From an uncultured virus (IMG/VR IMGVR_UViG_3300017714_004846) (Duplodnaviria; Heunggongvirae; Uroviricota; Caudoviricetes): DNA of 64,000 bases. The notes under the pieces are model-generated. The model had not been told where the DNA came from and did no database searches. It saw only the letters and a list, made by a program, of their open reading frames with translations. Of the stretch, positions 1,982 to 51,363 are shown piece by piece; position 1 is the stretch's first letter; every line of letters starts with the position of its first letter. The DNA lies in the IMG/VR virus record IMGVR_UViG_3300017714_004846, one strand, 5' to 3'. Made by a program: the position numbers and the translations under genes.

Positions 1982-2860
1982 ATGCGTCTAATCAATTGGG
2001 GTGTGAAACAGCCGGGTCAGTGGAATCCACTTTTACCTATGGCTTATCAAGACCAATTTTTTGTGAGGTTTTCAGGACTATCATCTCGTAGAGAAGAGTT
2101 GTTAAAAGAAAATAATACAGCAGAAAGGGCCACTCGTTTGGAGCGAACTGGAACAACCATGAATCCCAATGGACAATATTTACCACCGATACCTCCTTTG
2201 AGCAAAGGCAAACAGGCATTAGATACCCTAATTGGAGATTTAGAGCGTGACGAGGATGGTGAATTAGTTCTGGAGGAGAATGACATAGCCCAGCGACTAA
2301 TGCAATATCTAAGAGATGAACAAGTAGAGCCTCAAAAACCTGAACTATATTATGGGGTTTTAGGATTAAATGGTTTGGAAACTTTGATGGCCGCAGAGTT
2401 GTGGAATAATAATGACCACCCTGCTCATGCGGGAAACATGAGAGGTGGAGGGAAGAATTTCTGGCTTAATTGGTGTCAAAATGGTGGACGCAATGGTGAT
2501 TCAATGCCCTTTTCAATCTGGCTACATCCAGATGATTTTGCTTACATTAGAGATAATGAAGACGAAGGTTTTGGATTATTGGGTTCACTAATAAATGCAG
2601 AAATTGTTATTGATGGCAGTGATACTGGTGAAAAATTCATGATGCACCTTTGGCCTTGGAATCAACACGCCCAAGTAGTAATGCAGAGGGTTAATGACCG
2701 CATTGCAGACGAGAGTGATTACTGGGAAGATGAGGCAGAAGCAAAAGAAGGGATGCAAAGCATTATGGGAGAGGAGTGGGTGAGTTATGCCCGAACTAAT
2801 GCTCAAACCCGTGGTAAAGTAGAAGGTCTGATTAGACCCGAAGTGGAGTGGAAGCCATGA
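1982..2860 (+). CDS. hypothetical protein, N-terminal LINW motif; paralog of next gene
   Basis: Starts MRLINWG; shares LYYG..GLE.LM, PFS.WL.P.D, IDG.D and PWN blocks with 2857..3756. Confidence 0.85.
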   Translation: MRLINWGVKQPGQWNPLLPMAYQDQFFVRFSGLSSRREELLKENNTAERATRLERTGTTMNPNGQYLPPIPPLSKGKQALDTLIGDLERDEDGELVLEENDIAQRLMQYLRDEQVEPQKPELYYGVLGLNGLETLMAAELWNNNDHPAHAGNMRGGGKNFWLNWCQNGGRNGDSMPFSIWLHPDDFAYIRDNEDEGFGLLGSLINAEIVIDGSDTGEKFMMHLWPWNQHAQVVMQRVNDRIADESDYWEDEAEAKEGMQSIMGEEWVSYARTNAQTRGKVEGLIRPEVEWKP

Positions 2861-3756
2861 AATTTATTAACTGGCCCCGAAGCACTTTGATGCGTTTCGC
2901 TTACATGATGCCCGAAATAATTGCGGGTCAAACAGGAACAGTAGTCAATACTGCAGGACTTCATGAATTAAAAATGGCTCCGTTTGCTTATTGGGATGCT
3001 ACCTATCAGGGTTGGTTAAAGTTAGAATTTAAGAATTCGGGAAAAAATCGGATGTTGGAATTAATTCGTGAATATGGAGGCCCTGCCCAATTGTATTATG
3101 GAATTATGGATACTCAAGGTTTGGAAATGCTAATGCCTCGCAAGAAATGGAAAGGGCAAGAAAAATATTGGTTGCAATATTGTATTGATAATGGCAAGTG
3201 GCCGTTTAGTGTGTGGTTAGTGCCAGAAGATATTACGGTGTTGGAAGGCATTGCCGATAATAATTTGGTGACTAAATTAATTGATAAGATGAGATTTCAA
3301 CCAGTGCAACAACACACTTTGAATGGTTGGATGACACTAAATCCTGCCGAACATAGTTATACTGAAGATGAAGCATGGAAAAAAATTGGAGGGACTGGGT
3401 TTCAATATGCTTTGATTATTGATGGTTATGACCCTGCCGAATTAGGTGGTTCAAATCGTGCTGCGAATGCAGAACAGAAAAAGATGGAATTTTTATTTCC
3501 GTGGAATTTGCAAATGCAGAAAATAGAAGAATTAACTGTCCAGAGTTACGAGTCGGTGATAAATGATTATTTGGAAGCCCGTGGCAAGAATAGTTTAAAG
3601 GATGTTAAAGGCAAGTTGGAGTGGAAGAAAATGAATTGGAGGGTCCGAATTGACGAGGAGGATAGAAACATCCATAGTATCTATCTTCAGATTTTACAAG
3701 AATACGAACAAGCAAAAGGCAAGTTGGTTGGATTTCAACCCTATCCCGAAATTTAG
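2857..3756 (+). CDS. hypothetical protein, N-terminal FINW motif
   Basis: ATGA overlap gives start MKFINWP; paralogous blocks with upstream gene. Confidence 0.85.
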   Translation: MKFINWPRSTLMRFAYMMPEIIAGQTGTVVNTAGLHELKMAPFAYWDATYQGWLKLEFKNSGKNRMLELIREYGGPAQLYYGIMDTQGLEMLMPRKKWKGQEKYWLQYCIDNGKWPFSVWLVPEDITVLEGIADNNLVTKLIDKMRFQPVQQHTLNGWMTLNPAEHSYTEDEAWKKIGGTGFQYALIIDGYDPAELGGSNRAANAEQKKMEFLFPWNLQMQKIEELTVQSYESVINDYLEARGKNSLKDVKGKLEWKKMNWRVRIDEEDRNIHSIYLQILQEYEQAKGKLVGFQPYPEI

Positions 3757-4454
3757 CGTTCTAAGTTACGAGATTGCAAATACGGAGAGGTATCGCCCCT
3801 CATCCATTTTTTTTGCCAATGTGGTTTGCGTCGGTTATAAATTACATAAGGTCTACGAAGGTGCATCCTTTCCTGCTGATAACTGGGGCTTGGATGTCTA
3901 TTTGCATCTGCAAATTCAACATTCCTATCTGTTTCGTAACGCCCCCACGCTGGTATAGAGTCAGTGAATTTCTTAAATTTAAATTCATCAATTCTGCGGC
4001 GTAGACCTCCTGCACCATCGCTTTCTACAGTGTTGCTGGGTTCAGGTTGCAATCTTTTAGCCATTTTCATGAGCCCTTCCTTTCGGGATTTCTTACTTTG
4101 ATAGCGGTCTTCATCTTCAGAGTAATCTTGATTAGTAAGCAACTCTACACCACCCAAGAATATGATAAATCCTCCTACTCCTGCAATAATTTTAAGCGGC
4201 CATTTGAAATACCATCGCCAACCCTCAACTTTGGACATCGCCCGACCGACAACCCATCTACTACCAAAATAAAGAAACGCAACTCCTATCAAGGGTAATC
4301 CAAAGGGTTTAATTAAACTTTTGAGACTTTGTTTAACATAATCTGCTCCGTCACGACCTGCATAGATTTCTCCGTTAATGGCAGACACAATGCTACTTAT
4401 CAAACCCGAATTTTCTAAACGGTCGCCAATTTGAAATTCAAGAAGGTCACCCAT
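3753..4454 (-). CDS. membrane protein (two hydrophobic segments)
   Basis: Likely start MGDLLEF just after upstream stop; segments PFGLPLIGVAFLYFG and IIAGVGGFIIFLGGV. Confidence 0.75.
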   Translation of the reverse strand: MGDLLEFQIGDRLENSGLISSIVSAINGEIYAGRDGADYVKQSLKSLIKPFGLPLIGVAFLYFGSRWVVGRAMSKVEGWRWYFKWPLKIIAGVGGFIIFLGGVELLTNQDYSEDEDRYQSKKSRKEGLMKMAKRLQPEPSNTVESDGAGGLRRRIDEFKFKKFTDSIPAWGRYETDRNVEFADANRHPSPSYQQERMHLRRPYVIYNRRKPHWQKKWMRGDTSPYLQSRNLER

Positions 4455-4461
4455 GCCATCA

Positions 4462-5226: not shown

Positions 5227-6246
5227 ATGGGTCTGGCAGAAAAACTTGCTCGCTTGAAGAGAAAGTATGACCAAACGATGGAAGAACTCTATCAAGAGGC
5301 TACTACGCCAGATGAAGACCCACGCATGGAGCAACTGCGACAAGACCGAATGAGGGAGAAATATATGGCTGATGGAGAAACGGATAGTTATGAAAACACC
5401 CGCACGATGGGATGTCCAGTTTGTGGTCATGGACTCAAGACTATCTCTGCTTCTGCAGAATGTCCTTATTGTGAAGTATTGTGGCATTACCATGAAACCG
5501 ATGGATTTTCTTACTTTGAGGCCGAAATTTATAGTGCAGAAGATGATTCTTGGATAAATATTTGGAGCGAAGATTTCATTGAAGGTGGTTGTGTAAGCGA
5601 TGACAGAGCAATTTTACTTTGGGAGTTAGTGAATTTCCCCCGAAATTATGCTGATGATGATTTTGAAGCAGCCAACGAATGGTGGGAATCATTGCAGAAT
5701 GAACAAAGAGAAGATTTATTGGACATGATGACTACTAATCCAGAATTATCTGGAATTATTGATGATTGGGCAGATGATGATGTTCCTGATATAGACCTTC
5801 CTGATTATTTTGATGCCGAATCTTTCCGTGATTGGGCAGATGATGAACTTAGAACTCACGGAGAAAATGTAAGTTTTGAGGATTGGTCGCAAGAAGAGTT
5901 TGAAGATGAACCTACTCACCGTCATCCTAATGGACAATTAAGTTTCGTGCAATGGGCTCGTGATGAGATGAATGAAGAACACCATAATGCCGAAGAATTC
6001 TGTGCAGAATGTGGCTGTTCGTCTAAAGATGCCGAAACATTCTCTGCCGAAACCAGTTCAGGAACACAAGTTTTCAACTCTTGTTGGAAATGTGGGTCTG
6101 GACAACACTTGTATGAAATCACAAGGTATCCTGCCACCCCAGATGAAATCAAAGGTGTGGGTGGTGACCCAGCACAAGTAGTCAAGGGTTGGGAGAAAAT
6201 CCGTCAAGACCAAAAAGAAGGCTACGGCGTTATGGAAGATGATTGA
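5227..6246 (+). CDS. very acidic multidomain protein with CxxC motifs and repeated x-A-E motifs
   Basis: CPVC..CPYC, CAEC, CWKC; FEAE, YSAE, FDAE, HNAE, KDAE, FSAE; promoter ttgaaatagt 5197-5206. Confidence 0.8.
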   Translation: MGLAEKLARLKRKYDQTMEELYQEATTPDEDPRMEQLRQDRMREKYMADGETDSYENTRTMGCPVCGHGLKTISASAECPYCEVLWHYHETDGFSYFEAEIYSAEDDSWINIWSEDFIEGGCVSDDRAILLWELVNFPRNYADDDFEAANEWWESLQNEQREDLLDMMTTNPELSGIIDDWADDDVPDIDLPDYFDAESFRDWADDELRTHGENVSFEDWSQEEFEDEPTHRHPNGQLSFVQWARDEMNEEHHNAEEFCAECGCSSKDAETFSAETSSGTQVFNSCWKCGSGQHLYEITRYPATPDEIKGVGGDPAQVVKGWEKIRQDQKEGYGVMEDD

Positions 6247-6255
6247 GGGATAGAA

Positions 6256-6441
6256 TTGGAATATCCTAATCAATATTTAGACCGCAGGACTGGTAAGCAG
6301 TTAGAGGGTGAAGAACTTCAAAAATATCTTAATTATGAGATGCACGATTCTTGCACTAATTGTTTCTTTAATCCTGCTGACCATTTGGCAATGTTGCAGT
6401 TTTGGACTAAGCATAGAAAGATGCCCGGTGATTGTCACTAA
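6256..6441 (+). CDS. small hypothetical protein
   Basis: TTG start after GAGGGA; fills gap between genes. Confidence 0.55.
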   Translation: MEYPNQYLDRRTGKQLEGEELQKYLNYEMHDSCTNCFFNPADHLAMLQFWTKHRKMPGDCH

Positions 6442-6476
6442 TCAAATTTAAATAACAAGCCAGATAAATTATTGGT

Positions 6477-8558
6477 ATGGATGAGTTTGATGCCCAATGG
6501 TTTCGTCCTCGCAGAGTTAAAACTAAGAAGCGCAAGGCAAGACTAAACCCCAGTAGTTTAGCCGGTGGCATTGAGGAAATCCCAGAAATGTTGGGTAAAA
6601 AACGATTAGCGGCTGAAGATAGACCTATGGAAGAACGAATGACTCGTGAACAAGCCGAAAATTTGGCTCAAAAGTTGGAAACTTGGTTAGTCCCTTATGT
6701 AGAGTTCGCAGAGGTTTGTGGAAGTTATCGTCGTGGAAGAGAAGACCCGGGCGATTTGGATGTAGTAGTAATTCTAAAAAATCGGGTCAAGTTGCCCGAA
6801 GTAGTAGAGATGTGGCTGGCAGAGGGTAAAGCCTCGGCGGTGAATTGGGTAGGTGAAAAGAAAACCCAAATGGTTATTGATGGGGTCAAGGTAGATATTA
6901 GAACTACTACTCCTCGTGCTAAAGGCGCAGCATTGCTTTATTTCACTGGACCAGCAGGATACAATATCGGTATCAGGTCTGCTGCTAAAAGAGCAGGTTT
7001 CAAACTAAGTGAATATGGTTTGTTCAACCGAGAAACCAACGAATATATTGCAGGAGCCACTGAAGAAGATATTTATGCGGCACTGGGTAGAAATTATCGT
7101 GCGCCCACAGAACGCAGAGCCGAAGAAAAAATAAGTTTGGCACAAAGATTGAATAGAGAACGACCGAAACCAAAAGGACAAGATTATTCACTACTCACTC
7201 AAGAACAATTAACTGGGATTGGAGGATATTTCTTCAATACCAAAGAAAAAAGGCAAGCATTCATAGATAGGCAGAAAAGAAAAAAGGCCCGAGAGTCAGA
7301 AAAACAAAATCAAACAGGTTTCGGATGGATTGGCCGTGCAGAGAGTTTTAAACCTCCTGCCTCTGCAGTTAGTAATGCCAAGCGTGGTTTAGAATTGCGT
7401 AAAAAATGGGGCCGAGGAGGATTATCACCATCAGAAGCCAAATCTCATGGAATTGATTCTGGAGTCACTCGTGCCAGAAAAATCTCATCTGGAAAGGTTT
7501 CACAACACGATGTTCGCAGAATGAGTGCTTTTAACCGTCATCGCAAGAATTACCGACCCGAAAAGAAAATGCCCGATGGAGGACCCACGGCAGGAACTAT
7601 TGCTTGGTTACTGTGGGGTGGAACTTCAGGTGTGAACTGGGCTAAGAAGAAATCTGCGGCGATGAATGCTGAAGAAGTTGAAGATTATCCAGATTGGGAC
7701 CCCGAAGAATTTGGAATCAAAAATGAAGAAGAGGTTTTTGACGCAGAATTAGTGATGTCAAGGTTCTCTCCAGAAGGATATTCGTTGTATGGAAGGAAAC
7801 TCCATCTTTATGGCCGTCTTCAAGGAGCCATCGTTGGAGGTCAGAAGGGAGTCAGAAACAATCCCGAAAAAACCTATACGGGTAGATATGGTGTTCGCTG
7901 GGGTAGTTTCACTGAAGGAACTCCCGAAAGAGCAATTTTTGATAAAGTAAGTCAAGAAATGAAACCCGAAAGTTTTGAACAATGGATGGATGTGATTTAC
8001 GCAACTAACGACCGTCTAAAAGAACCACAGAAAAAGAAAAGCCGTTTTGGAAGAAAGAAAAAAGCCGAAACCTTTGAGGCCGTAGTTCTCCACCAAGGAA
8101 AACTTCCTGAAGGTGCGGTTGCAAAAGCCATGCTAACTCATGCCATGATGGAAAAGGCCAAAATGTTGGAAACAATTGCACAATTAGAGAATTCTATTTC
8201 TCTGGGATTGATTTCGGAAGAAGAAGTCATGAGAAGTCTGAAAGATAAATTCGGAGCAGAAACCCAAGATTTTGCACCTCGCTATGAAATTCAGATTCGC
8301 ACCAGCCGAGGCAATGTAACCGAAAGAATTCCTGTGAGTGCTGGAATGTTAGTTCGCAGAGTCAGAGAAATTCTGGCAAGAAAGGGCTACTTGTATGCCA
8401 TGGATATTTTTGGAACCGAACCAGCGTTTAATGTTCAAGGGCCGTATGGAATGCAAGTCTATCGTCCCAAGCCAAAACTGATGGCTGTCTACAAGTATGG
8501 AAAATTTGAATCCGGTGAAATGGCTGACCACCTCAATGAAAAATTGGGGTTAAGATGA
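6477..8558 (+). CDS. multidomain (poly)protein containing a minimal family X DNA polymerase domain
   Basis: GSYRRG..GDLDVVV, VDIR, LLYFTG, LSEYGL, EEDIYAALG (aa ~50-215); a further domain AKRGL..GVTRAR..IAWLLWGG; domains bounded by A-E motifs; promoter ttaaataaca 6448-6457. Confidence 0.85.
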   Translation: MDEFDAQWFRPRRVKTKKRKARLNPSSLAGGIEEIPEMLGKKRLAAEDRPMEERMTREQAENLAQKLETWLVPYVEFAEVCGSYRRGREDPGDLDVVVILKNRVKLPEVVEMWLAEGKASAVNWVGEKKTQMVIDGVKVDIRTTTPRAKGAALLYFTGPAGYNIGIRSAAKRAGFKLSEYGLFNRETNEYIAGATEEDIYAALGRNYRAPTERRAEEKISLAQRLNRERPKPKGQDYSLLTQEQLTGIGGYFFNTKEKRQAFIDRQKRKKARESEKQNQTGFGWIGRAESFKPPASAVSNAKRGLELRKKWGRGGLSPSEAKSHGIDSGVTRARKISSGKVSQHDVRRMSAFNRHRKNYRPEKKMPDGGPTAGTIAWLLWGGTSGVNWAKKKSAAMNAEEVEDYPDWDPEEFGIKNEEEVFDAELVMSRFSPEGYSLYGRKLHLYGRLQGAIVGGQKGVRNNPEKTYTGRYGVRWGSFTEGTPERAIFDKVSQEMKPESFEQWMDVIYATNDRLKEPQKKKSRFGRKKKAETFEAVVLHQGKLPEGAVAKAMLTHAMMEKAKMLETIAQLENSISLGLISEEEVMRSLKDKFGAETQDFAPRYEIQIRTSRGNVTERIPVSAGMLVRRVREILARKGYLYAMDIFGTEPAFNVQGPYGMQVYRPKPKLMAVYKYGKFESGEMADHLNEKLGLR

Positions 8559-8986
8559 GTCTATACGAAGATTATGATTTGGCGGAGAGATACCTCTCTG
8601 ATTCAAAGTCTATTCTATTGACATATAAGATGGGAAGTTATACTGGAAACTACATAATTCAGATTAATGCGACATATGCAATGGACGATACGCTTGATAA
8701 TGAGAATTGGGATGGCAATTTTTCTGAGAAGGGTTTGTTAGCCGAATTCAGAGGAAAACTTACTGCTCAGGGAGAATTCATTATGGTAGATAGCAGTTAT
8801 CCTTATCATCTGCACCGAAAAGATTTTGAAGAATTGATGGAAAATTGGACAGCAAGAAAAGATGTAGATGATGTAATGGCTCCTCACGCAGAAATGTTTC
8901 ATCGTCACCTTAAAAATTATATGGGGCCTCCACAGGATTCTTATACAGCAATAAATTGGCTGAATGTATCTCGGTATTATAAATAG
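8555..8986 (+). CDS. hypothetical protein, C-terminal AINW motif
   Basis: 143 aa ORF overlapping the upstream stop; ends TAINWLNVSRYYK. Confidence 0.75.
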   Translation: MSLYEDYDLAERYLSDSKSILLTYKMGSYTGNYIIQINATYAMDDTLDNENWDGNFSEKGLLAEFRGKLTAQGEFIMVDSSYPYHLHRKDFEELMENWTARKDVDDVMAPHAEMFHRHLKNYMGPPQDSYTAINWLNVSRYYK

Positions 8987-9007
8987 GACACAACACATAG
9001 TTGTGTT

Positions 9008-12726: not shown

Positions 12727-13569
12727 TTAAGTTTGTTTCCAGAAAATCAAGGCCAAATTGTGTCCCGAATCTCTTCCGCCACCTGCAACTATCCATTTTT
12801 CAAACACTTCAGCCTTCACAGGAATCACTCGGCGCATTTCAGGGTTGTGGTCTGGACCTGTAATCTTTTCTATGGCCTCTTGAAATGAATTTTCCATCCA
12901 TTCACCTACATCTACATCTTCAGGAAGTTGTAAATCATCTGAATTTCCATTCCAGAATTTTTGGTCTTTCAACCACCAGAGCCACATTATGTTGTCATTT
13001 TCATCCCAAATCTGTGCTGGCTCATTAGGAGCAGTGTATCCCAAGTCTCCAAAATTTCCCGATTCATTACCCAGAGCCGGAATACTCATCATACTTACTT
13101 GTTCATATTCGTTTTCTTCAGATTGGGCTAACAATTCTTCCTCAAACCTCTGCCAAATTTCTGGGTCGCCTTGTTGCACCACTTCCCACCAGCGTTGTCC
13201 TAATAATAGCGGATATTTATGGTGTTCATCACTTGAAGTTCCCATGCCTTCCAAAATAGCATCCATTATGGGGTCGGCATCTTGATAGGGTTGGATTTCT
13301 CCAGATTCATCAGTGTTAAAATAGATAGAGAATTCATCTGGTAGTAGATTTCCGAAACGATATTCTTTTAGAAATTGATAATGCACTAAAGGAAATAATT
13401 CTAACCAAACTTTTTGCAAACTGGTATTGACTACTGTAAAGAGCGGAGGAATAACTCCCATGATGGGAATATCCCACAATCCTACTACACCCCAGATAGA
13501 TTCTGGTTCTTCTTCTTGTAATTCAGGAAGAACTTTCTGCAACCAATTAATCGGAGCAGGTAGACTCAT
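12727..13569 (-). CDS. acidic hypothetical protein, N-terminal LPAPINW motif
   Basis: Starts MSLPAPINWL; promoter ttaactaaca 13589-13598 (minus), 29 nt upstream. Confidence 0.85.
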   Translation of the reverse strand: MSLPAPINWLQKVLPELQEEEPESIWGVVGLWDIPIMGVIPPLFTVVNTSLQKVWLELFPLVHYQFLKEYRFGNLLPDEFSIYFNTDESGEIQPYQDADPIMDAILEGMGTSSDEHHKYPLLLGQRWWEVVQQGDPEIWQRFEEELLAQSEENEYEQVSMMSIPALGNESGNFGDLGYTAPNEPAQIWDENDNIMWLWWLKDQKFWNGNSDDLQLPEDVDVGEWMENSFQEAIEKITGPDHNPEMRRVIPVKAEVFEKWIVAGGGRDSGHNLALIFWKQT

Positions 13570-13629
13570 AATAATTATTGGGTCATTCTGTTAGTTAAAC
13601 TTATGTAGCAACACCACGAAAGTAATGTT

Positions 13630-14019
13630 ATGGAGATTCGCAAACTTATCAATTGGATGCGGTCCCCATGGGTTTGGAGAATGTTCTTGGAAGTCCCTTA
13701 CGAGGGAGGTTATGTTTTCGGTCAATACTACCCCGATAATTCTTCCCAAGCCGCAGAACGCTTAATTAGATATGCCATAGTATACGCTAAGGAAGAGAAA
13801 CCCACTGGTATAATAGTAGATATGAAAGATGAGCCTTCCCGAGTATATAATTTAGAAACAGAGGACATGGATGGAGATGAGCCATTATCACCGACTAATA
13901 CCCGAATACTCAAATTACTAACCAAAGATATGAAAAGTCCTAATTTCATTACGGCTTATTATGAAAATTATGATACTTTAAATCTATCACGATACAATTT
14001 GTATCAGGATGTCCAATAA
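13630..14019 (+). CDS. hypothetical protein, N-terminal LINW motif
   Basis: Starts MEIRKLINWMRSP; promoter ttatgtagca 13601-13610, 29 nt upstream. Confidence 0.8.
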   Translation: MEIRKLINWMRSPWVWRMFLEVPYEGGYVFGQYYPDNSSQAAERLIRYAIVYAKEEKPTGIIVDMKDEPSRVYNLETEDMDGDEPLSPTNTRILKLLTKDMKSPNFITAYYENYDTLNLSRYNLYQDVQ

Positions 14020-15223: not shown

Positions 15224-16027
15224 ATGTCAGAGCCTAATCCGTTGTTTGTTAATCTATCACGGATGTTGCAATCCAACAATGTTAGTGTAATCAATTGGAA
15301 TCCTCAAGGCACTGGATTGATTAGACAAGCGCAATTACCTAAAGTCCATACCAAAGCAACCCAAAGATTAGGAACCACTGGTGGAACTGTCTACAATTTT
15401 GTGGACCCTCCTTGTGGCACTTGGGGAGAATTAAGTTCTTGGGTCACCGCATTAAGAAATAAACACTCTAACAGAGCCAATTCTTGGAATCCACGCCGAA
15501 ATCATTTTGGAGGTTTAATGCCCGAAGCAACCTACCAAGTCACTAATGGTTTAGATGTGCGAGATAGTCGTTTCACCAATGGTGGACAATATGCTATGAA
15601 AGATGGCACCGAAATGAGATTAACTTGTCGTGGCTCTGGATGTAATACCGAATGGAAGAGGAGCGAAAGACAAAAAAATGCGGGTTATGCTAACAAATGT
15701 CCTCGTTGTGGAACTAAAGATAATTTTACGGAAACAGGACCACACCAGATTCAATATGCTCAATTAACATTTCCTGTGGCATTAGTCTCAAATCCCTCTT
15801 GCACTATTGGTTTTGTAAATCTTTATGGGCAAGAAGCAGAGCGTTTGCAAGATATTATTGCTCCGGGCGTTAAATTCAAAGCCCGATTTTATGGCAAGGC
15901 AGGAAAAAGAAGCAGACAAAAGCAAACTGGAAGAGGCTATGAATGGTATAACTATCTTTTAATGACTTTGGGAAGTGCTGCCTATAATGCTCAAAATCAA
16001 AGAACAGGATTTATACAAATAATATAA
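15224..16027 (+). CDS. zinc-finger protein, possibly RPA-like OB fold
   Basis: CRGSGC..CPRC followed by beta strands and VNLYGQEAERL, resembling Zn-containing RPA OB folds (inference); VINW near N-terminus. Confidence 0.5.
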   Translation: MSEPNPLFVNLSRMLQSNNVSVINWNPQGTGLIRQAQLPKVHTKATQRLGTTGGTVYNFVDPPCGTWGELSSWVTALRNKHSNRANSWNPRRNHFGGLMPEATYQVTNGLDVRDSRFTNGGQYAMKDGTEMRLTCRGSGCNTEWKRSERQKNAGYANKCPRCGTKDNFTETGPHQIQYAQLTFPVALVSNPSCTIGFVNLYGQEAERLQDIIAPGVKFKARFYGKAGKRSRQKQTGRGYEWYNYLLMTLGSAAYNAQNQRTGFIQII

Positions 16028-21277: not shown

Positions 21278-21766
21278 TTATTGATATTCTTTGGTTTTTG
21301 CTCTCCAGATAAATTGAGAGAAATAAATTTCAAACAGAGCGTCACCATCAGAATCAGTGACTTGGACTCCCCCAAAAATATCGGAGTTGTTCTGTAATAT
21401 CTTTTTGTAGTTTTCATCTTCCATCATATTATTGACGGTAAATTCAGTGGCTACTTCCATTTCTTTTTCTTCAACGATTTCTTTAAATTTTTCTTGCAAC
21501 ATTGCTAAAAGGCTGTTGAGGGTTTCATTAACAATGGTTCCCAGAACCATTTTGAATTCTTCTTCCGAATTTCCTGTGGGTCCTGCTACCATATACTGCA
21601 CTGGACCGGGCATTTGCCCGCATATGTCATCGTCATTACAATCAACAACACTACGAAAAGCAGGATAGTAGGTTTTATCTTTGGGAATAATTGTGAATTG
21701 CACTAACAAATGGTCTGGGGTCTCCAGTCCGGACTTGAGCCAATTGATAGGTGTCGGCAAACCCAT
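21278..21766 (-). CDS. hypothetical protein, N-terminal LPTPINW motif
   Basis: Starts MGLPTPINWL; promoter ttaagtagca 21786-21795 (minus), 29 nt upstream. Confidence 0.85.
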   Translation of the reverse strand: MGLPTPINWLKSGLETPDHLLVQFTIIPKDKTYYPAFRSVVDCNDDDICGQMPGPVQYMVAGPTGNSEEEFKMVLGTIVNETLNSLLAMLQEKFKEIVEEKEMEVATEFTVNNMMEDENYKKILQNNSDIFGGVQVTDSDGDALFEIYFSQFIWRAKTKEYQ

Positions 21767-24777: not shown

Positions 24778-25205
24778 TCTTTCAGGCGGAATATCCACCA
24801 TTGGGCTTTATCGCTCTGGGTTTTCGTGCTACTTGGCCCCACGGCCTTGTCAATACTTACATATGTTGAGCCATACCACATAACTAATTCTCCGTAACCA
24901 AAGAGTTCTTGTATGATTTTAACTCGTGGCACCCATTTTTCGTTTCTGTTCCCAGAAGGGACACTATATGTTCTTAGTTCTCCCCGAGCCTGACCAGAAT
25001 TATCTCTGCCGAATCCACGGCTTTGGTAATTTTCTGCAACCCAGTTTTTGGCTTCTTCTAATGTAGCAAAGAATCTTTGTAGATGGTCTGGGGTGCGATG
25101 AGACCACCAAGAACCACTTATGACCTCTGAACGGTTATATCCAAAGACTACAAATCGGGGATAATCTCTATCCTCCATCCAATTAATGGGGGCAGGTAGG
25201 CTCAT
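24774..25205 (-). CDS. hypothetical protein, N-terminal LPAPINW motif
   Basis: Starts MSLPAPINWM; SD AGGTG. Confidence 0.85.
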   Translation of the reverse strand: MSLPAPINWMEDRDYPRFVVFGYNRSEVISGSWWSHRTPDHLQRFFATLEEAKNWVAENYQSRGFGRDNSGQARGELRTYSVPSGNRNEKWVPRVKIIQELFGYGELVMWYGSTYVSIDKAVGPSSTKTQSDKAQWWIFRLKD

Positions 25206-25214: not shown

Positions 25215-25811
25215 TTATTCTAAATCAAAAAATTCATCTAAATCTATGGGATTCAGAGGATTAAATCTCAGCGTGGAGAATTGGTCTGTTTTATCCAGTA
25301 TGGAGGCATACTGCCCATAACAAGTTATTTCGGTAAGTTGGAGGGGTGGGGTCAGGTATTTATCTATGGTTGCTAAACTTTTATTTCTGAGAGCCTCTAA
25401 ATCAGCATCTGGCTCCCTGTAATAATTCAGCATCAAGCCCACATCATCATCCTTGGATTCAAGGTCTACACCCTTGAAATAAATAGAACCCACAATTGAT
25501 GGCGGATTAGGCACCAATACTTCTTGTTCTTCAAGAACCTTGTCCTCCCCGTATGGGGCATCTTCATCATATACAAAATCACCATCTTCATCCCTCACGG
25601 GCATCTTTACGGTTTGGAGTTCCAATCTATCACAGGAACTATTCACCAACTGGTATAGAAACTCTTTTACTTGGGAATGAGTCATTACTTGGGAATACCG
25701 AATATTTTGTTCTAAATCTGTTATCCATGGTGGTATCTCCAGAGTCATCAATAAATCGTTGGAACTACTACCACTTCTAATCCAATTTATGGGGCTGGGA
25801 ATGCGAGGCAT
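25215..25811 (-). CDS. hypothetical protein, N-terminal IPSPINW motif
   Basis: Starts MPRIPSPINWIR; promoter ttgaaatagca 25831-25841 (minus). Confidence 0.85.
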   Translation of the reverse strand: MPRIPSPINWIRSGSSSNDLLMTLEIPPWITDLEQNIRYSQVMTHSQVKEFLYQLVNSSCDRLELQTVKMPVRDEDGDFVYDEDAPYGEDKVLEEQEVLVPNPPSIVGSIYFKGVDLESKDDDVGLMLNYYREPDADLEALRNKSLATIDKYLTPPLQLTEITCYGQYASILDKTDQFSTLRFNPLNPIDLDEFFDLE

Positions 25812-34400: not shown

Positions 34401-34898
34401 TTTTTGGAAGACACACAAAACTTTATGAGGTATGCTGTATGGGCTCAATATCGTAACACTAATAACTCTTTTTCAGCCGCAGCATTACAGGACGATAATA
34501 TAGAAGACATTTTTGGATTTACATGGGCTCAATTTTGGGAAGCCGATATGCCTGAAAAATATGCGGAAATGGCAAAAGTATACCAACATTGTGTGCAAGA
34601 TATGGCTGGTGAGAGGCATTCCTCAAGTTTATCGCCTTCCACATCTGGAGGAGGTTTTATTCCACATCAATATCATTTCGCAAAAATAATGTTGGATGAT
34701 GACCGGAACTCGGAAGAATTTTTTGCAGAGAATAAAAAATACCAATTTAATGCTCGGGCTACTATTCTACCCGCTACTGAAAATGAACTAAAGAATCAAC
34801 CATTTTCAATTCGGGGACTGAGAAGATTAAATCCCTACAAATTCTTGATTAATTGGTGTCGCAAACTCAAAGCCAGAGTTAAAAACCTATTGGTCTAA
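31461..34898 (+). CDS. large Asn-rich hypothetical protein (~1145 aa), C-terminal LINW motif; probable structural
   Basis: ATG 31461 after GGAGGG; ends NPYKFLINWCRKLKARVKNLLV. Confidence 0.85.
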   Translation: MDYKDWWFRTLDTLGFWGGINSLFNNNVEVDEIKENMASNVALAPYTKNTVATSDTQKFDHPAIVQIQEHLEEIKFTGESNSLINNGFNNQSVLTISGAGSRLANNGLLVGGFADRPFQTTTQSYRTMEGPLATEERRSVWNWWPVTRAVSVVNPNIWYNGMLAQISSEQVGYYQRKNNSRVIKIRHWMTNKKGQVYPNTRAKSQDGIRRTNGIIPADPTMSSFGDFSNYWQMAYGSNEITAEEYDQGSDLIRNMFGEEYTGTQNSLNELIANGSEGFNSFREWVKDNGGPKNTVVISTDKTFNHNIPDWIRTSELTYREMGEIWDMLQMTQVLFYLYGHSESNRDKIKARMNASILKYENFGTVTGEKIQDVINFAPWRKLQNIMKYTYFGDGRTLMASRFGSLSASFSNNIGKQPITQLPIVKLEPSTSTGEMEWKYNTEYVSQQLSNNKGVIVQSISSNIDVNTGAQSQNLTPNKALIEFFEPGENHTIFDPTLQDDGVVLSNALFDPDSNQLNPNFVKLKRLPEGRSPYGKIEGENDPMVTWHKELMELTEESGNNNSVSRMVSRGTLLKNITLGWIMENLDWTRPRTVNSDNRYGSAEWQNIAEVEQNTLDALPPDSPQTLANIQKIASKILLKFGNTLNFQNSQWLPMGLIRINNECIMDKPLAETCPTLEKYQELSGNDSLIYSYNNTGDYWMTLNTPRRMSSQDSIISYDWFRPTATREDGYAEGVDEMMVSGTNEAVQKWGWYSCPFNLIDKEGTFWYAGPANYYEKNDTSGAKSKQNYLGFPASKNSRGTTNTTKANHKRQNPMIHGGSTLIPTPESINDTEFWADYIQFRQNNLRIKSEVGTASLDEEIPQQQWVDSECPQYLLNNLKAAGDRNEYGDLTGDAFFLGYEGWLQQRKNITPVVTAKLETWFMTGNNQSTQTTVNVVKQYVAQLHNAQKYDTTPRHMKNFLRNTIVPESQYQKFVEGQKPAFLEDTQNFMRYAVWAQYRNTNNSFSAAALQDDNIEDIFGFTWAQFWEADMPEKYAEMAKVYQHCVQDMAGERHSSSLSPSTSGGGFIPHQYHFAKIMLDDDRNSEEFFAENKKYQFNARATILPATENELKNQPFSIRGLRRLNPYKFLINWCRKLKARVKNLLV

Positions 34899-35731
34899 TC
34901 TTTCCAGAAGTGAAATCCTTCTGGTTCTGGATTACCATCTACAGTTTCTACGGCTTTGGCAGTGGTCACTTGTTTATTATATCTCAATACACCTACTAAT
35001 ACTGCGCCAATGGCTAAAAGACCAGCCACATTAACTAAACGGGTAGGTAAAATTCCTTCGGCCCGATATTCTTCAGCACCTTTGGATGGGCCTTCTAAAT
35101 CTACAATTCCCATGTATCCCATTTTTCCTAAAACTTCTTGAAATGCAAACCAATCTACACCAGCATCATTGGCTAAAGTAGAACCACCGCTACCATCAGG
35201 GACATTCTTGTTTTGTCCCGATTCACGATTGATAGAATAGGGGTCGCAACCCGGGCTGGCTTGTTGCATGGCTCGGACTATAGTATCAGAGTCGGGGAAA
35301 ACCAAAACTCTGACACGGTTATGCAGAACTCTTTGTCCAGTATTAGTATCTAATTGCTGGTGAGGATAAACCACATATTGCACAATATATTCATTGTTAT
35401 CACGACATTTAATAAATTCGTCTACTACATCTGTAGATGAGAAATATTGTCGGCCTGTGTAAATCTTACCATCTTTGAGTGGGTGTCCATGAATTGTCCA
35501 CTTGCGATTGGTAAGCCCTTCTGTGAGTGCATCTTCGTGGGCCTTGGCTTGTGGATTAACTTCAATACGAGATTCGTCGCCATAGGTGACATTCCCCAAA
35601 AAATATTGTCCATCTCTTTCATACACATAACACATCCATTCTCGCTCTTCGTGTGTTTTATCAGAATATTTCTTCATATCACGGATTGCATCAGCCGAAA
35701 ATTTGTTCCATTCATTTTGCCATTGACTCAT
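34895..35731 (-). CDS. JAB/MPN (JAMM)-like metalloprotease with C-terminal TM
   Basis: EREW..WTIHGHP..FSSTD matches E..HxH..SxxD; YRAE then a hydrophobic helix. Confidence 0.65.
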   Translation of the reverse strand: MSQWQNEWNKFSADAIRDMKKYSDKTHEEREWMCYVYERDGQYFLGNVTYGDESRIEVNPQAKAHEDALTEGLTNRKWTIHGHPLKDGKIYTGRQYFSSTDVVDEFIKCRDNNEYIVQYVVYPHQQLDTNTGQRVLHNRVRVLVFPDSDTIVRAMQQASPGCDPYSINRESGQNKNVPDGSGGSTLANDAGVDWFAFQEVLGKMGYMGIVDLEGPSKGAEEYRAEGILPTRLVNVAGLLAIGAVLVGVLRYNKQVTTAKAVETVDGNPEPEGFHFWKD

Positions 35732-44312: not shown

Positions 44313-45503
44313 ATGGCTGAATACTACGCCGTCCCCCATGATGAAATGGAGGAATTTCTACGACAACGCCGTTTTGTCCCAGTGGAATTAAGTTATCGCA
44401 ATCGTCCAGTCAAAGAATGGGTCTATGAACGCAAGTTGCCTCGTAGTCCGGGCCATTGGGTAAGAATCTACACAGGCATTAACCGCTACGGTAAAGATGC
44501 AGGTGATAGTCGCAAATCTGGTAAAGATGCTATTCGTGTGCAAGTTATTTATCGTGATGGCTTAGGTGAAACTTTAGTGAGCCAACCAAAAAGGGTTCAT
44601 AGAGTATCAGGCTGGGCCGAAAATCTGGATAAAAGATTGAAAGAAGTGGCAGAAAAACTCCCTCGTGTGGCTTACGATAGTCGTGGACAACCCATGACTC
44701 TCCGAAAAGGCAAGTCTGGTTATTTCTGGGGTAGTAGAGATTATCCTCGCTACAAAGAAACTCGCCCATTTAATTCAGAATCTGCTCCATTAGCGGGTCA
44801 AACCACGGAAGCACCCTACGAGATTAAGGTGTATGTTCCCTCTACCGATTTAGACCAGCCTGTGTCGGAAACCGAATTTCAATCTCGCATTGATGAAACT
44901 CAAGAAAAACTATCAGAACTTTTTGGTGGGTTCACTACCACAGAAGGTGATGGCGGATATTTGAGTCAAGAAGATGGCTTGATTAGCGAACCCGTAATGA
45001 TAGTCACTACTTGGGCTAATCCCGAAGAATATTTGGACAAGTTAAAAGAATTGGAAACTTTCTTGCAAGATAAACAACAGGATTGGGGACAGGAAGTTAT
45101 TGGTTTTGAATTTGAGAATGATTTCTTTATGTTTCCCGAATTTTCTGCAGAAGGTGACCCAGCGTGGATGAGTGACCCAGAAAAGAAAAGAACAGCATTC
45201 CTAAAACTACAAAAAGAAGATGGTGTGCCTCGTATTTGCGAAGTGTGCGAATCTGCTTATAGTGGCCTTTATCGTTATTCAACATTAGAACCTACATTTG
45301 AGGTATTTGTGGTCTGTAGAAATTGCGTTAAAAAATCAGAACGAGAATGGGGAGATATTTTTGGAATTAAACCTGATTGGACGGGGGAGAGGGCAGGAAA
45401 ACCTTCATCAGTAATCCACAATGTTCCCGAGGTTTCCGCAGGAAGTATCTTGCTAATTTCGGGCGCAATTGGATTCGCAATGGCTATATTTTTGGGTCGG
45501 TGA
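44313..45503 (+). CDS. multidomain protein (Cys-less topoisomerase-ribbon-like segment, DUF3574-like domain, Zn finger, C-terminal TM)
   Basis: MTLRKGKSGYFWG..YP; LFGGFT..G.GGY; CEVC..CRNC; domains split by FNSE and FSAE; promoter ttaaatagca 44284-44293. Confidence 0.7.
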   Translation: MAEYYAVPHDEMEEFLRQRRFVPVELSYRNRPVKEWVYERKLPRSPGHWVRIYTGINRYGKDAGDSRKSGKDAIRVQVIYRDGLGETLVSQPKRVHRVSGWAENLDKRLKEVAEKLPRVAYDSRGQPMTLRKGKSGYFWGSRDYPRYKETRPFNSESAPLAGQTTEAPYEIKVYVPSTDLDQPVSETEFQSRIDETQEKLSELFGGFTTTEGDGGYLSQEDGLISEPVMIVTTWANPEEYLDKLKELETFLQDKQQDWGQEVIGFEFENDFFMFPEFSAEGDPAWMSDPEKKRTAFLKLQKEDGVPRICEVCESAYSGLYRYSTLEPTFEVFVVCRNCVKKSEREWGDIFGIKPDWTGERAGKPSSVIHNVPEVSAGSILLISGAIGFAMAIFLGR

Positions 45504-45507
45504 TAAG

Positions 45508-46779
45508 ATGGGAAACATTAGAGAATGTTGTGAGTGTGGCAAGGCTGAAGGCTTAACCACGATTCAAACAGGAACTTATTGTTATGATTGTTTGCCCATT
45601 AACTTAGGTGCTGAAGATAGTTTAGACTATATGAACTATCTCAATGATTTACGAACTTATCCTGAACTACGAAACTTTACTGATGAGCAACTGCTGGCAA
45701 GGGGTATTGATTGTTTAGCATTACAAACTGCCAACCGAGAAAAGTTTGATGCAGAAGATAACTACGAGGCCACTTATGGAAAACGCCAAGCAGGAATTCG
45801 TAGACGGCTCAAGAAGAAAATTAAGTCGCAAACTATCCGAGGAACTGCGGCTGGAGAATGGTCGGCTCGTAAGTCGCAACTACTGAAAGAAAAGTATGAG
45901 GATGCTTGTGAGAGAGCCAATATCCGACCCTACAAAGGCAAGAAATCTCAATCCCAGAAAAATTTGAGTAAGTGGAGCAAACAAAATTGGAGAACAGCCA
46001 GTGGCAGAAAATCTTCCATAACTGGTGAACCCTATTTCCCTGCTAAAGCGGTAGAAGCACTCAAGAAAAAGGGATTATATGCCAAAGCCCGCCGTCAAAA
46101 AAGAGCCGCCACCAAATCGGGAAAACAAAATGCTCGCTATAGTGATGACATCCGTAAGATTGTAAAGCGTTTTCGGTCAGAGGAAAGAGGTTGCTATGAT
46201 TGCCCTAATTGTGGACATCAATTAACTGAGCGTAATTCTACGGGGTGGGGCGACTATTGTTATTGCTTTACTTGTGAAGAACACTTTATCACCAAACCTT
46301 TAGCCATGATTGCGGCTGCAGAATCAAGACCAGATTGGGAAGATATTGATTGGAAAACAGATAAGCCTCCTGCCAAAGAAAATGAAGATTGGGGCGATGA
46401 TGTAGAATGGGATGCTGAAAATAAAGAAGTTGCGCTAAAGGAATTTGACGAAACAGACCTTGCTAAAGGAAAAAATGTGGATGACCACTTGGCATGGCAA
46501 CTCAAGAAATATTCTAAAATCAATGAAGATGGAAATATTGGGTGTCCCGAATGCGGCTCAGTAGATTTGTTTGCTCGTGAGTTCACAGATAAGGGTGTCA
46601 AATGGAACTGTTGGGATTGTATGTATTCTCGTAAAATAGAAACTCTCAAATCTCAAAAAGACATCACTTTAGAAAAATTCGGTCTGGTCTTCCCTTGTGC
46701 CAAGTGTGGTGAAGACATCAAAGCATTTAATCGTTATTCTTTCATCCTACACCAAAGAAAATGCGAGGGTAAAAAATGA
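45508..46779 (+). CDS. multidomain protein with basic DUF5872-like domain and several Zn ribbons
   Basis: GEWSARKSQLL..QKNLSKWSKQNWRT..GEPYFP; multiple CxxC; LGAE, FDAE, FRSE, AAAE, WDAE borders. Confidence 0.75.
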   Translation: MGNIRECCECGKAEGLTTIQTGTYCYDCLPINLGAEDSLDYMNYLNDLRTYPELRNFTDEQLLARGIDCLALQTANREKFDAEDNYEATYGKRQAGIRRRLKKKIKSQTIRGTAAGEWSARKSQLLKEKYEDACERANIRPYKGKKSQSQKNLSKWSKQNWRTASGRKSSITGEPYFPAKAVEALKKKGLYAKARRQKRAATKSGKQNARYSDDIRKIVKRFRSEERGCYDCPNCGHQLTERNSTGWGDYCYCFTCEEHFITKPLAMIAAAESRPDWEDIDWKTDKPPAKENEDWGDDVEWDAENKEVALKEFDETDLAKGKNVDDHLAWQLKKYSKINEDGNIGCPECGSVDLFAREFTDKGVKWNCWDCMYSRKIETLKSQKDITLEKFGLVFPCAKCGEDIKAFNRYSFILHQRKCEGKK

Positions 46780-47219
46780 ATCTTATCAATTGGGTTCGCA
46801 ATCCTGCATTGATGTGGAGTTTCTCTACACAAAGAGTGGGTTTATCTCGGGATTTATTTTATGCTCCTTCTCGTGAACACGCTCAAGCAGCAATTATACG
46901 CCACATGAGGATGATGTTTGGAGAGGAATTAGACGAGTTAGGGTGGGAGCGAAATGAGGAATATAACGCTGATGTTTTAGTGGAATATACAGATGGTCAA
47001 TCACAAGGGGATTTCGGTTATCTGAAATTAGTAAATGACCAAATCAAAACCTTAAATGAAGTAATGGATAATTATGTGGAACTCACTGAAGAAGAAAAAC
47101 AAAAGAAAAAACAACGGATGGAAGAAATAAGGAAAATGTATAAACAAATGACTCCTACTTCTGACCCCGAAGATTATTACGCTTATCCACGACAGTCAAG
47201 TTTCTATCCTGAAGAATAG
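46776..47219 (+). CDS. hypothetical protein, N-terminal LINW motif
   Basis: Starts MNLINWVRNP; ATGA-coupled. Confidence 0.8.
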   Translation: MNLINWVRNPALMWSFSTQRVGLSRDLFYAPSREHAQAAIIRHMRMMFGEELDELGWERNEEYNADVLVEYTDGQSQGDFGYLKLVNDQIKTLNEVMDNYVELTEEEKQKKKQRMEEIRKMYKQMTPTSDPEDYYAYPRQSSFYPEE

Positions 47220-50200: not shown

Positions 50201-50757
50201 TAGGAACAGACTTGCAATATGTGGGGCAAAACTTTACTCACGATACCCGAGATTGTAGCGAAGGCCCAGCAAACAACCCCTACAACACATTAGATTCTAT
50301 GCGACAGAAAACCATGGCTCAATTCGCTTTGGGAGATTGTTTAGAGTCAGTAGATAATGTAGACCAATCATCCCGATTGATTAACCGACACTTGATTCGT
50401 GATATGAGGGGAAATCTTCGGGCTTACGGGCAACAAAAGGTTCGTTGTCCTAAATGTGGTGCTAAGTATCGCCGTCCACCCATTTCGGGTCAGTGCATGA
50501 CTATTTTGGAAACTAAAGAAAACCCATTTTCGGGGGAAATGGAAGATATTATGTGTGATGGTAGGATTATCCTTACCGTGACTCATGGCTCAGTGGCTAA
50601 ATATGATAAATTGATGGCAGAATTAGTAGACCGCTACGGAGCAGATGGTTATACCGAGGGATTATATCAACAAGTATCTAAATGGGTCAAAGAAACCTTT
50701 GAGGACAAGAAGATTAAATCTCAAAGCAGATTGCCTTTGCCTGATGACCCTGATTAA
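47260..50757 (+). CDS. polC: DNA polymerase D large (catalytic) subunit DP2
   Basis: AILTEG..VAPLEG, FAGPIRSAGGTGQALSV, GGFRLRYGRSR, IGGRMGKPE, FRDGTIRFD, APHTS, AAKRRNCDGDID, MDAPL, CPKC Zn finger. Confidence 0.97.
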   Translation: MAWSHDEYIERLKTDADHAYEIAGQARAKGLDPKIEVEIPQAFDLADRCQKLLDFLHARKTAEQIRELTQHHDGNREMVALDIAKIVTAESWLYGVKKKCEACGGEKVVQKGRRKVSCDACEGTGMILEYSEDIDKPWQETLEKFSEVEKSLRDETLVALCIYHGVCAGLAILTEGILVAPLEGVVSCRLITNGDSSKSLAINFAGPIRSAGGTGQALSVLIGDIIRREFNLQPPQITFEEAERYKEEVSKYARGLQYRPSNPQLEVIAYNCPVYIDGEGVGNEVSGQRDLPRVPTNKVREGMLLVMCEGLVLKAPKILKYTEALGFEEWDWLKQFTGGKGDEKAKKASIEPNYKYLGDVLAGRPIFGQPMSVGGFRLRYGRSRLAGLATTAMHPASMRAVGSFLIIGTQMKYERPGKATVVTPCDSIEGPYVQFNDGSARRIQSLEDLEDAIPTEEEWNVAKVWDIGELLVPVGEFLENNHPLAPSPYVSEWHELVLGKEELTYPENFSTALEQSQKFGVPMAPDYVAHFSDIKSIDLQELLSGIKVDDSGAQVEPEFLDTIYRLNIDVDANRYLSGAKSALLLNLVESKSQLNFDSDASANSLDVIRNFYNFPIENPISIRIGGRMGKPEGSKLREMKPPIHCNFPVGFNVGSLRLLRTAADQDEDVELGWRMCDVCDTETIWGVCCGAETRFVGVKWDNIDIKELYESSLEQAQQSDGKIKGVKGVTSSEKTPERPLKGILRFKHGISTFRDGTIRFDMVDITMTHFRPREIGMTLEQARELGYDCNSIDDICELRPQDVVLPLNCSEKILATANYMDDLLEKMYGLDAYYNCKEINDLIGHYVMGIAPHTSGAILARIIGFANIKGHYGHHYYHAAKRRNCDGDIDAVLLLLDGLINFSKKFLPGHRGGQMDAPLILTTKIVPSEIDKEALNVEIVDHYPLEFYELTRGIIDEDGDLVPAPAKAALDAGVVIVESVLGTDLQYVGQNFTHDTRDCSEGPANNPYNTLDSMRQKTMAQFALGDCLESVDNVDQSSRLINRHLIRDMRGNLRAYGQQKVRCPKCGAKYRRPPISGQCMTILETKENPFSGEMEDIMCDGRIILTVTHGSVAKYDKLMAELVDRYGADGYTEGLYQQVSKWVKETFEDKKIKSQSRLPLPDDPD

Positions 50758-50960
50758 CCATACATAGCATCGTTATCATCTGGCAATTCAGGAAGTTCGG
50801 TCTTTTTGAGAGCCAGAGATAGTTCTACTAAATGTTTGAGTAAAGACTTGATTTCGCCTAATTCAGAATGCAACAAATCATTCATTTCTAAAACTTGGGT
50901 GATTTGAGATGCCACTTCGCCCAAAGTTAGTTCAGACTTGGGCTCGGGAGATTCTGACAT
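50754..50960 (-). CDS. small coiled-coil protein
   Basis: Promoter ttgaaatagt 50981-50990 (minus). Confidence 0.7.
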   Translation of the reverse strand: MSESPEPKSELTLGEVASQITQVLEMNDLLHSELGEIKSLLKHLVELSLALKKTELPELPDDNDAMYG

Positions 50961-50991
50961 AATAACCTATGGTAATTGCAACTATTTCAAT

Positions 50992-51363
50992 CTATTCAGA
51001 TGGTAGTCCTGAAGCGGGGGAATTTTCTATTTGTTCGGCAATAGTATTCAGAGCCGAAGCAGGAATTAAGCCCAGAGTGGAACTACTGGCTATTCCTCGC
51101 AAAGTGGTAGCCAGCACTGAAAACGCCTCTTGGTAGGCTGCTATTTGTGCCAAAAATGCGGTTTGTAATTCACTCACACCTTCTTGGATTCCCTCTTGTA
51201 GTTCATCTACGCCTTCTTTAGCCGACTCCATACGCATTTTTAGGTCAAAGTTTTCAGCCACGAGCGACCTAACTTTATCTTGAAGAACTCCTATTTTTTG
51301 GACATCAGACTCTATGGTTTCTACAGGAGTGCGAAGCCAATTGATGGGTGTTGGAAGGGTCAT
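50992..51363 (-). CDS. coiled-coil protein, N-terminal LPTPINW motif
   Basis: Starts MTLPTPINWLRTP. Confidence 0.85.
   Translation of the reverse strand: MTLPTPINWLRTPVETIESDVQKIGVLQDKVRSLVAENFDLKMRMESAKEGVDELQEGIQEGVSELQTAFLAQIAAYQEAFSVLATTLRGIASSSTLGLIPASALNTIAEQIENSPASGLPSE

Follow-up and report, generated by a model that had tools for sequence, protein, structure and literature searches.

A short terminal [IL]NW peptide on otherwise unrelated proteins of a probable archaeal jelly-roll virus and its possible role as a docking tag

A short peptide with the core [IL]NW recurs at the ends of otherwise unrelated proteins encoded by an uncultured virus (IMG/VR record IMGVR_UViG_3300017714_004846), of which a stretch of 64,000 nucleotides (the window) was analysed. 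An earlier note on this DNA had proposed the peptide as a sorting or packaging tag, and the motifs it listed (nine N-terminal, two C-terminal and one weaker VINW) are all present at the genes named. In a set of 74 window genes (19,335 amino acids) hand-picked from the list of open reading frames (ORFs), the tripeptide INW occurs 12 times against 1.2 expected: nine copies lie at residues 4-8, one at residue 23 and two within 16 residues of the C-terminus, placing all 12 near an end (at most 23 residues from the N-terminus or 16 from the C-terminus).

On the forward strand, MRLINWG (1982..2002) opens a 292-amino-acid orphan protein (gene 1982-2860) and MKFINWP (2857..2877) opens its 299-residue paralogue (gene 2857-3756); in this family, [IL]NW stands at residues 4-6 in 9/9 aligned members, with Ile and Leu exchanging. 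Two further tagged genes diverge from a promoter region (13570..13629) with TATA-like boxes of the non-GG class described below, about 30 nt upstream of each ATG, from which transcripts are probably leaderless: MSLPAPINWL (13540..13569, reverse strand; 280-residue orphan, gene 12727-13569) is kept at 30% body identity, and MEIRKLINWM (13630..13659, forward strand; 129-residue orphan, gene 13630-14019) at 19%. A structure-atlas search with the former protein gave no match. Also on the reverse strand are MGLPTPINWL (21737..21766; 162-residue orphan, gene 21278-21766), MSLPAPINWM (25176..25205; 143-residue orphan, gene 24774-25205), MPRIPSPINWI (25779..25811; 198-residue orphan, gene 25215-25811), and MTLPTPINWL (51334..51363; mostly helical 123-residue orphan, gene 50992-51363), while MNLINWV (46776..46796, forward strand; 147-residue orphan, gene 46776-47219) is kept at 24% body identity and belongs to a gene directly downstream of two polyprotein genes discussed below.

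The two C-terminal copies are on the forward strand. FLINWC (34842..34859) belongs to a large orphan gene with a probable start at 31461 and a stop at 34898, and is retained in a homologue of 24% identity. TAINWL (8945..8962) lies in a 143-residue orphan (gene 8555-8986) for which no independent homologue was found among 112 loci searched, and is counted as an unverified tag. The numbers 8555 and 31461, under which these copies had been reported, are correct as gene starts, but the motifs themselves are at 8951-8959 and 34848-34856. Finally, VINW (15287..15298, forward strand) occupies residues 22-25 of a zinc-ribbon/OB-fold-like protein (gene 15224-16027), for which the OB-fold is a weak atlas lead (0.77). 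This copy is a probable tag variant, being kept in 3/3 close homologues and appearing as I[IL]NFW in two distant ones.

The terminal placement of INW is not explained by chance. Nine proteins carry it within their first 10 residues, compared with a maximum of 2 across 5000 per-protein shuffles, and the best count for any 3-mer in 1000 shuffles of the N-terminal test was 5; the two C-terminal cases alone were matched by chance in 15/5000 shuffles. The motif acts at the protein level, as a peptide. In the first 45 coding bases of window genes, AATTGG is in frame eight times and out of frame once; over 55 family-by-DNA variants of the tag, all three Ile codons and both Asn codons occur, and within families synonymous changes are seen as well as Ile/Leu exchange, in agreement with the varied codons noted earlier. 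ATC is over-represented among the tag Ile codons (24/55 vs 21%), which fits descent by copying from a common ancestor.

Relatives were collected with a DNA pattern for M-x-L-P-[AT]-P-I-N-W, which returned 49 metagenome loci: 36 relatives, 5 loci identical to the window, and 8 unrelated ones, the latter 13 being dropped. This search selects for the motif itself; independent support comes from the LINW-type, C-terminal, and [IL]NW tags on adjoining genes, and from genomes reached via capsid-like proteins, namely four IMG/VR records (G001-G004) of 123-166 kb, two with inverted terminal repeats, to which an alignment of the family of window gene 56947 led. From the window clade, G001, and G004, 114 tagged proteins were grouped into 45 body families, of which 42 were kept and three dropped as likely spurious ORFs or chance; 25 of the 42 have members in the window clade and 19 in G001/G004. 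The tag is N-terminal in 24 families and C-terminal in 18, and it also occurs inside fused modules. In G001 and G004, polyproteins with Cu/Zn superoxide dismutase (SOD) or PolX domains hold a Met-started [LV]NW module directly after a putative cleavage site of the A-E type described below, and a kinase-like protein, recognised by eye, is fused to two dissimilar modules, each with [IL]NW. As the motif may stand at either end, docking is favoured over an N-terminal processing signal.

Across these families the tag outlasts the body that carries it, persisting in several of them down to 19-24% body identity, and two seemingly untagged homologues proved to have GTG starts and an intact tag. The N and W are invariant across clades, with nearly no conservative variants at N-termini; position counts over the 42 tags reveal that Trp is often followed by Thr, Ser, or Cys and that there is no conserved Gln. 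Motif discovery on the protein termini of relatives, a check suggested in the earlier note, found LNW as the top-ranked terminal 3-mer in both G001 and G004 without use of the search pattern. C-terminal [IL]NW occurs in 8/202 ORFs of G001 and 8/189 of G004, against maxima of 3 and 4 in 400 shuffles, in the form hydrophobic-L-N-W-x-x-(F)-P-x-x-x-hydrophobic, 10-19 residues before the end. In G002 and G003 the strict tag was found in 0/142 and 0/177 ORFs, respectively; at the corresponding terminal position, two G003 homologues of tagged families read LGNW and FGNY.

The tagged bodies are not one fold. Apart from the 1982/2857 pair they had been described as dissimilar, and among the N-tagged set (78 sequences in 19 families) only 2/171 pairs of body profiles exceeded 30% probability, one of them owing its link to a shared stalk-like tail considered below; a near-threshold link (E ~2e-4) joins the 13630 family and a neighbouring family. 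Several pairs of loci have the same upstream DNA and tag followed by different bodies, as in relatives of gene 25205. Beyond the families assembled here, a profile of 20 N-terminal tag segments compared with 1.84 billion representative sequences gave 9 matches, 8 from families already known here and 1 to an unrelated repeat protein, a short motif giving such a search low power. The strict N-terminal pattern had 13 matches in a species-genome collection, all with bacterial titles and taken as chance. Nothing relevant to the [IL]NW motif was found in the literature searched.

Tagged proteins are orphans with a distinct profile. None of 47 tagged representatives, and none of the 12 tagged window genes, reached a curated Pfam cut-off. 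In the window, G001, and G004, transmembrane segments are predicted for 1/36 tagged proteins compared with 107/469 others (p 0.002), and a strict A-E site is found in 1/36 compared with 77/469 (p 0.03), bearing out the description of the tagged set as soluble and largely free of A-E motifs. On the body side of the tag, the nearest 27 residues include an A-E-type site in 1/42 families; with no such site beside it in the other 41, the tag is probably not cleaved off, although a different, unrecognised cut site is conceivable. The tagged bodies range from helical to alpha/beta. In an AlphaFold model of the 21766 protein (mean predicted local distance difference test score, pLDDT, 78), the tag is on a low-confidence arm (pLDDT 51, residues 1-10) outside the folded alpha/beta body, modelled as a helix of one to two turns (residues 7-12) that precedes it; a fold search with this body returned no match at Z 5 or E 0.001. 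Over the tag and the following 8 residues, the helical hydrophobic moment is 0.33 vs 0.27 with shuffled flanks (n=41, p 2e-4) and the net charge spans -2 to +2. In 10/42 families the tag reads N-W-[ST], a glycosylation-like sequon.

The window's TATA-like boxes, located about 30 bases upstream of the ATG, fall into two classes according to whether GG or CA/TC/TT stands just downstream of the box. Replication genes and TFB belong to the GG class, and jelly-roll genes and A-E polyproteins to the non-GG class, which may thus, by its gene content, be late. All 12 tagged window genes are non-GG, compared with 27 of the 54 classed untagged genes (p 9e-4); counted by transcription unit, the figure is 10/10 tagged units (p 0.002, or p 0.013 minus the two weakest).

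The gene content of the window indicates a marine archaeal element. It encodes the PolD large subunit, TFB, a primase, an MCM-like helicase, a ligase, PolX, and methyltransferases, and its host order is probably Poseidoniales, since the nearest named cellular homologues of the TFB, at ~52% identity, come from Thalassarchaeaceae and Poseidonia. Among the 74 window genes no head, portal, or terminase family was found bar one weak match (E 0.007). Two predicted single jelly-roll paralogues (55422..56947, reverse strand) are candidate capsid proteins. Gene 56947 was modelled, at low confidence (pLDDT 55.8), as a single jelly-roll with C-terminal helices; the best match of the model was the capsid chain 6oj0_T of Sulfolobus polyhedral virus 1 (SPV1; Z 7.9, root-mean-square deviation 4.2, 136 aligned), tied with cellular, nucleoplasmin-like jelly-roll folds, and no viral match was found at E 0.001. 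The earlier suggestion that capsid proteins lie at 55422-58012 thus holds as far as jelly-roll paralogues are encoded there, but not for the most conserved pair: the likely major capsid proteins are two paralogues encoded beyond the window, with 61-96% identity among all lineages.

Three alignment scans of IMG/VR all returned the same four genomes, and scans using PolD, TFB, and the strict tag pattern returned no locus. Both PolD subunits, PCNA, MCM, TFB, TBP, and many jelly-roll paralogues occur across G001-G004 and the window clade. In addition to the window's repertoire, G001 has TBP, PCNA, the PolD small subunit, a classic AAA ATPase, and a HerA-like ATPase candidate (E 4e-4, under the cut-off); glycosyltransferase genes are also present in the group. 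Core proteins are only 41-62% identical across clades, and G002 groups with G003 in a single clade (support 0.997, unrooted tree). Taken together, these comparisons suggest that the element is probably a large tail-less, membrane-containing archaeal jelly-roll virus. A virus group with PolD, TFB, TBP, PCNA, jelly-roll proteins, and inverted terminal repeats was not found described in the literature searched and is apparently undescribed so far; the elements treated in the accessible parts of PMC11706807 and 10.1101/2025.08.03.668216 differ from this one. Four RNA runs gave scattered short contigs at a depth of ~2-6 over 8000-27900, insufficient for conclusions on expression, strand, or timing.

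The reading that is favoured here, tentatively and at somewhat less than an even chance, is that [I/L]NW is a non-cleaved docking tag for virion cargo. The earlier proposal that soluble proteins dock through a short linear motif survived the tests set for it beforehand, the terminal copies being neither chance nor part of one fold and being kept in homologues. The core [I/L]-N-W, preceded by a hydrophobic residue or Pro and followed by a short amphipathic helix, would form a portable linear motif that fits a single pocket in an assembly protein encoded by the virus, possibly an inner scaffold, a membrane protein, or a capsomer cavity, making the partner a putative virion protein. A soluble protein made alongside the structural genes, with its tag at a free N or C end, would be recruited at low copy into the assembling particle and would probably be delivered to the next host cell, the tag staying uncut and complementing the A-E route of the membrane-anchored or modular polyproteins. 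New cargo would come about by recombination, with a promoter or leader already in place keeping its tag and acquiring another body; T4-like internal proteins are likewise described with different bodies behind a shared upstream DNA and tag (accessible part of PMC9026906). Support for packaging into the virion is indirect, coming from the promoter class, the solubility, the exchange of bodies, and the tagged modules fused into A-E polyproteins.

That phage system offers the closest functional parallel. The T4 capsid-targeting sequence (CTS) of IPI-III, like the present tag, is a short terminal peptide that related viruses attach to little-conserved proteins with no relationship to one another, with a proposed role in particle loading (PMC9026906, accessible part). 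However, the CTS is a 10-residue N-terminal propeptide cut by gp21 in a tailed-phage head, whereas the present tag differs in sequence, is found at N- or C-termini as well as within fused modules, and comes from an archaeal element that encodes jelly-roll proteins. The analogy drawn in the earlier note is thus retained for the shared short peptide on unrelated proteins, and does not extend to placement and cleavage, the tag standing at either end and lacking an A-E-type site beside it in 41/42 families; it may work like the T4 CTS, an idea as tentative as the cargo-docking reading to which it belongs, without being a member of that class. A second parallel comes from adenovirus, where the accessible part of 10.1101/857581 describes how terminal peptides of two different proteins, VI and VII, share one pocket of hexon, a jelly-roll capsomer, in a manner comparable to the pocket proposed here. 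In that double jelly-roll eukaryotic virus, two core proteins are involved and are proteolytically matured; here there are dozens of accessory families and a putative partner.

Among archaeal viruses, the group shares with Sphaerolipoviridae and Portogloboviridae two very conserved paralogues of predicted single jelly-roll fold and many small membrane proteins (PMC6414509, accessible part), with further likeness in the HerA-like ATPase candidate and the inverted terminal repeats of two relatives. Those families, as far as the accessible text goes, are single jelly-roll archaeal viruses with an inner membrane and genomes of ~20-30 kb, whereas the present group has 123-166 kb and PolD, TFB, TBP, PCNA, and MCM; no cargo tag is mentioned for them in the accessible part of PMC6414509. 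The magroviruses (Magrovirales) and other described Poseidoniales viruses probably share the host order of this element. Both, however, are head-tail viruses with PolB and no PolD according to the accessible part of PMC11706807, whereas this element has PolD and jelly-roll proteins.

Several observations weigh against the cargo-docking reading. With Pfam enzyme matches for 0/47 tagged representatives and recognisable enzymes in the A-E polyproteins, the tagged set resembles binders or adaptors more than packaged enzymes. G002/G003 are without the tag and yet encode the likely major capsid pair at 61-81% identity, which makes that pair a poor fit as the partner of the tag. A search for the partner by co-occurrence named none; since G002 and G003 are one clade, tag loss in them counts as a single event and gives the comparison no power. 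The families common only to the window clade, G001, and G004 were three (methyltransferases, 15224, and 37036), in a comparison that covered about half of the window clade's genome only in part. The promoter bias is not universal either: the claim that tagged genes share one promoter class holds for 12/12 in the window, but one tagged family in close relatives has the GGT class of replication genes in 5/5 members, and no significant bias emerged from the class test in G001 (p 1.0) or G004 (p 0.34), two genomes in which the promoter pattern left many genes unclassed. Lastly, the late timing assigned to the non-GG class is derived from gene content.

A second motif on some tagged proteins bears on the alternatives. 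GF[EAQ]GLGSLF[GS], mostly C-terminal, occurs on genes L003:5727-6443, L013:3115-3804, L023:10001-10714, L039:10001-10726, and L048:1006-1581 of the metagenome loci, and at 131853-132847 in G001 and 9419-9907 in G004. Six of these proteins, five from the window clade and one from G001, are also INW-tagged and end in GF[EQ]GLGSLF[GS]. The archaeal stalk protein aP1 binds aEF1-alpha and aEF2 via a Leu103..Leu106-Phe107-Gly108 tail (PMC4267659, accessible part), and the second motif matches that tail at the residues given there. A PDB sequence search with a 31-residue stalk-like tail returned no match.

Such mimicry of a host motif lends some support to the idea that viral effectors use [IL]NW to attach to a single conserved host protein or complex, such as a transcription, translation, membrane, or quality-control hub. 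The unchanged N and W core in clades so far apart would fit a slowly evolving partner, and the loss in G002 and G003 could reflect a different host. The 13 strict-pattern matches in species genomes, however, include no archaeal record (a search limited to the strict form), and the strong bias of tagged genes to the structural-gene promoter class speaks against a host hub. This reading is unlikely, though it ranks first among the alternatives. One such hub, PCNA, is disfavoured. The archaeal PCNA-interacting protein (PIP) box, with the consensus Gln-x-x-hydrophobic-x-x-aromatic-aromatic, is likewise a short terminal hydrophobic motif on unrelated proteins, and G001 encodes a PCNA; but the present tag has no conserved Gln and does not require a second aromatic residue, PolD subunits carry separate Gln-containing tails, and 0/116 proteins in 15 replication and transcription families are tagged. 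The PIP-box reading is thus rejected, and the earlier suggestion of PCNA as a partner is not supported. Next in rank, and also unlikely, is that the tag serves as an adaptor or degron for a viral AAA+ unfoldase docked on the host 20S proteasome, the tagged proteins being substrate receptors or short-lived substrates. In viral degradation adaptors, a single conserved docking peptide is combined with many variable, non-enzymatic bodies, a layout that [IL]NW and its bodies would match. A classic AAA ATPase with a single ring is encoded in all five lineages (L003:8466-9827, outside the window, and homologues in G001-G004), with best solved matches to Cdc48/p97/VAT (E ~1e-44 to 1e-49) and an uncharacterised N-domain; its C-terminus is Leu-Tyr-x in 7/8 full-length copies, in line with the HbYX tail pattern as taken from the accessible part of PMC5476697, and its gene shares a promoter class with the tagged family that bears the stalk-like tail, located three genes further upstream. 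However, G002 and G003 encode the ATPase but are without the strict tag, and the ATPase promoter is of the GG class, whereas nearly all tagged genes are non-GG. The ATPase and small conserved proteins ending in Met-Tyr-Gly (the window gene at 50754-50960 and the G001 154690 family) are candidate activators of the host 20S proteasome.

An extended form of the unfoldase idea is doubtful: [IL]NW would dock dozens of interchangeable substrate receptors on a Cdc48/PAN-like ATPase of the virus, whose HbYX tail would open the host proteasome, giving ubiquitin-free targeted degradation, with one receptor capturing elongation factors by mimicry of the ribosomal stalk, all within a peptide-address code of 120-170 kb archaeal jelly-roll viruses whose receptors are virion-delivered or made late. 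If the viral AAA ATPase were indeed the partner, a new route to proteasome hijacking in archaea would follow. A function that involves no single pocket, with the tag starting an amphipathic helix that binds a viral or host membrane or serving as a site of covalent modification (e.g., at Asn or Trp), is improbable. The raised hydrophobic moment, the sequon, and the glycosyltransferase genes of the group are compatible with it, but near-invariant Asn and Trp would be unusual for lipid binding, the charge of the segment varies in sign, and the sequon is missing from 32/42 families. Least probable, and contradicted by most of the evidence on the motif, is a DNA or RNA element (a palindrome resembling CCAATTAATTGG shortly after the start) or a structural part of one fold. 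P-I-N-W can be read from the near-palindrome, which has 64 matches at 2 mismatches vs 39.5 expected, and ATC is over-used in tags; the frame bias, the synonymous changes, the Ile/Leu exchange, and the C-terminal copies largely refute this palindrome reading. One shared fold, to which the few weak links among bodies might point, is likewise rejected on the profile comparison, and is at odds with bodies that range from helical to alpha/beta and with the position of the tag in the one model available.

To judge from these sequence comparisons, the address motif is real and undescribed, in an apparently undescribed virus group, and its function is proposed on the same grounds. Cargo choice in large tail-less DNA viruses is largely open, and the best understood address, the T4 CTS, comes from tailed phages. 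With a three-residue core, at either end and probably uncut, on more than 40 orphan families, one synthetic peptide could find the partner. In addition, the tag singles out candidate proteins for host takeover or anti-defence in a dominant group of marine archaea.

In the A-E route, membrane-anchored or modular polyproteins are apparently cleaved at sites of the [FYML]xAE type. Boundaries of this type mark two modular polyprotein genes at 44313..46779 on the forward strand, immediately ahead of the tagged gene 46776. Modular polyproteins were found at 5227-8558 and 44313-46779 in the window, at L020:10520-13993, and at 151891-154656 in G001 and 110231-112939 in G004; [FYML]xAE-type sites separate their domains (PolX, Cu/Zn SOD, pterin dehydratase-like, DUF5872, and zinc fingers), which are shuffled among genomes. 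A conserved membrane-anchored JAMM/MPN-like protein (34895..35731, reverse strand), with an HxH..SxxD motif read by eye, is a candidate protease of this route. It has its own A-E-type site, located ahead of the C-terminal membrane anchor in 6/6 aligned copies; it has a weak DUF4329 match (E 0.042), and no solved-structure match was found for it.

Other window genes include a protein-kinase-like gene (30644-31471), recognised by eye and without a Pfam match, and a PP2C-type phosphatase (27030-27779), both of the non-GG class. Two neighbouring genes at 35738-40176 combine a long Pro/Gly-rich linker with helical repeats; distantly homologous genes occur in G001 and G004, and in G003 the two may be fused.

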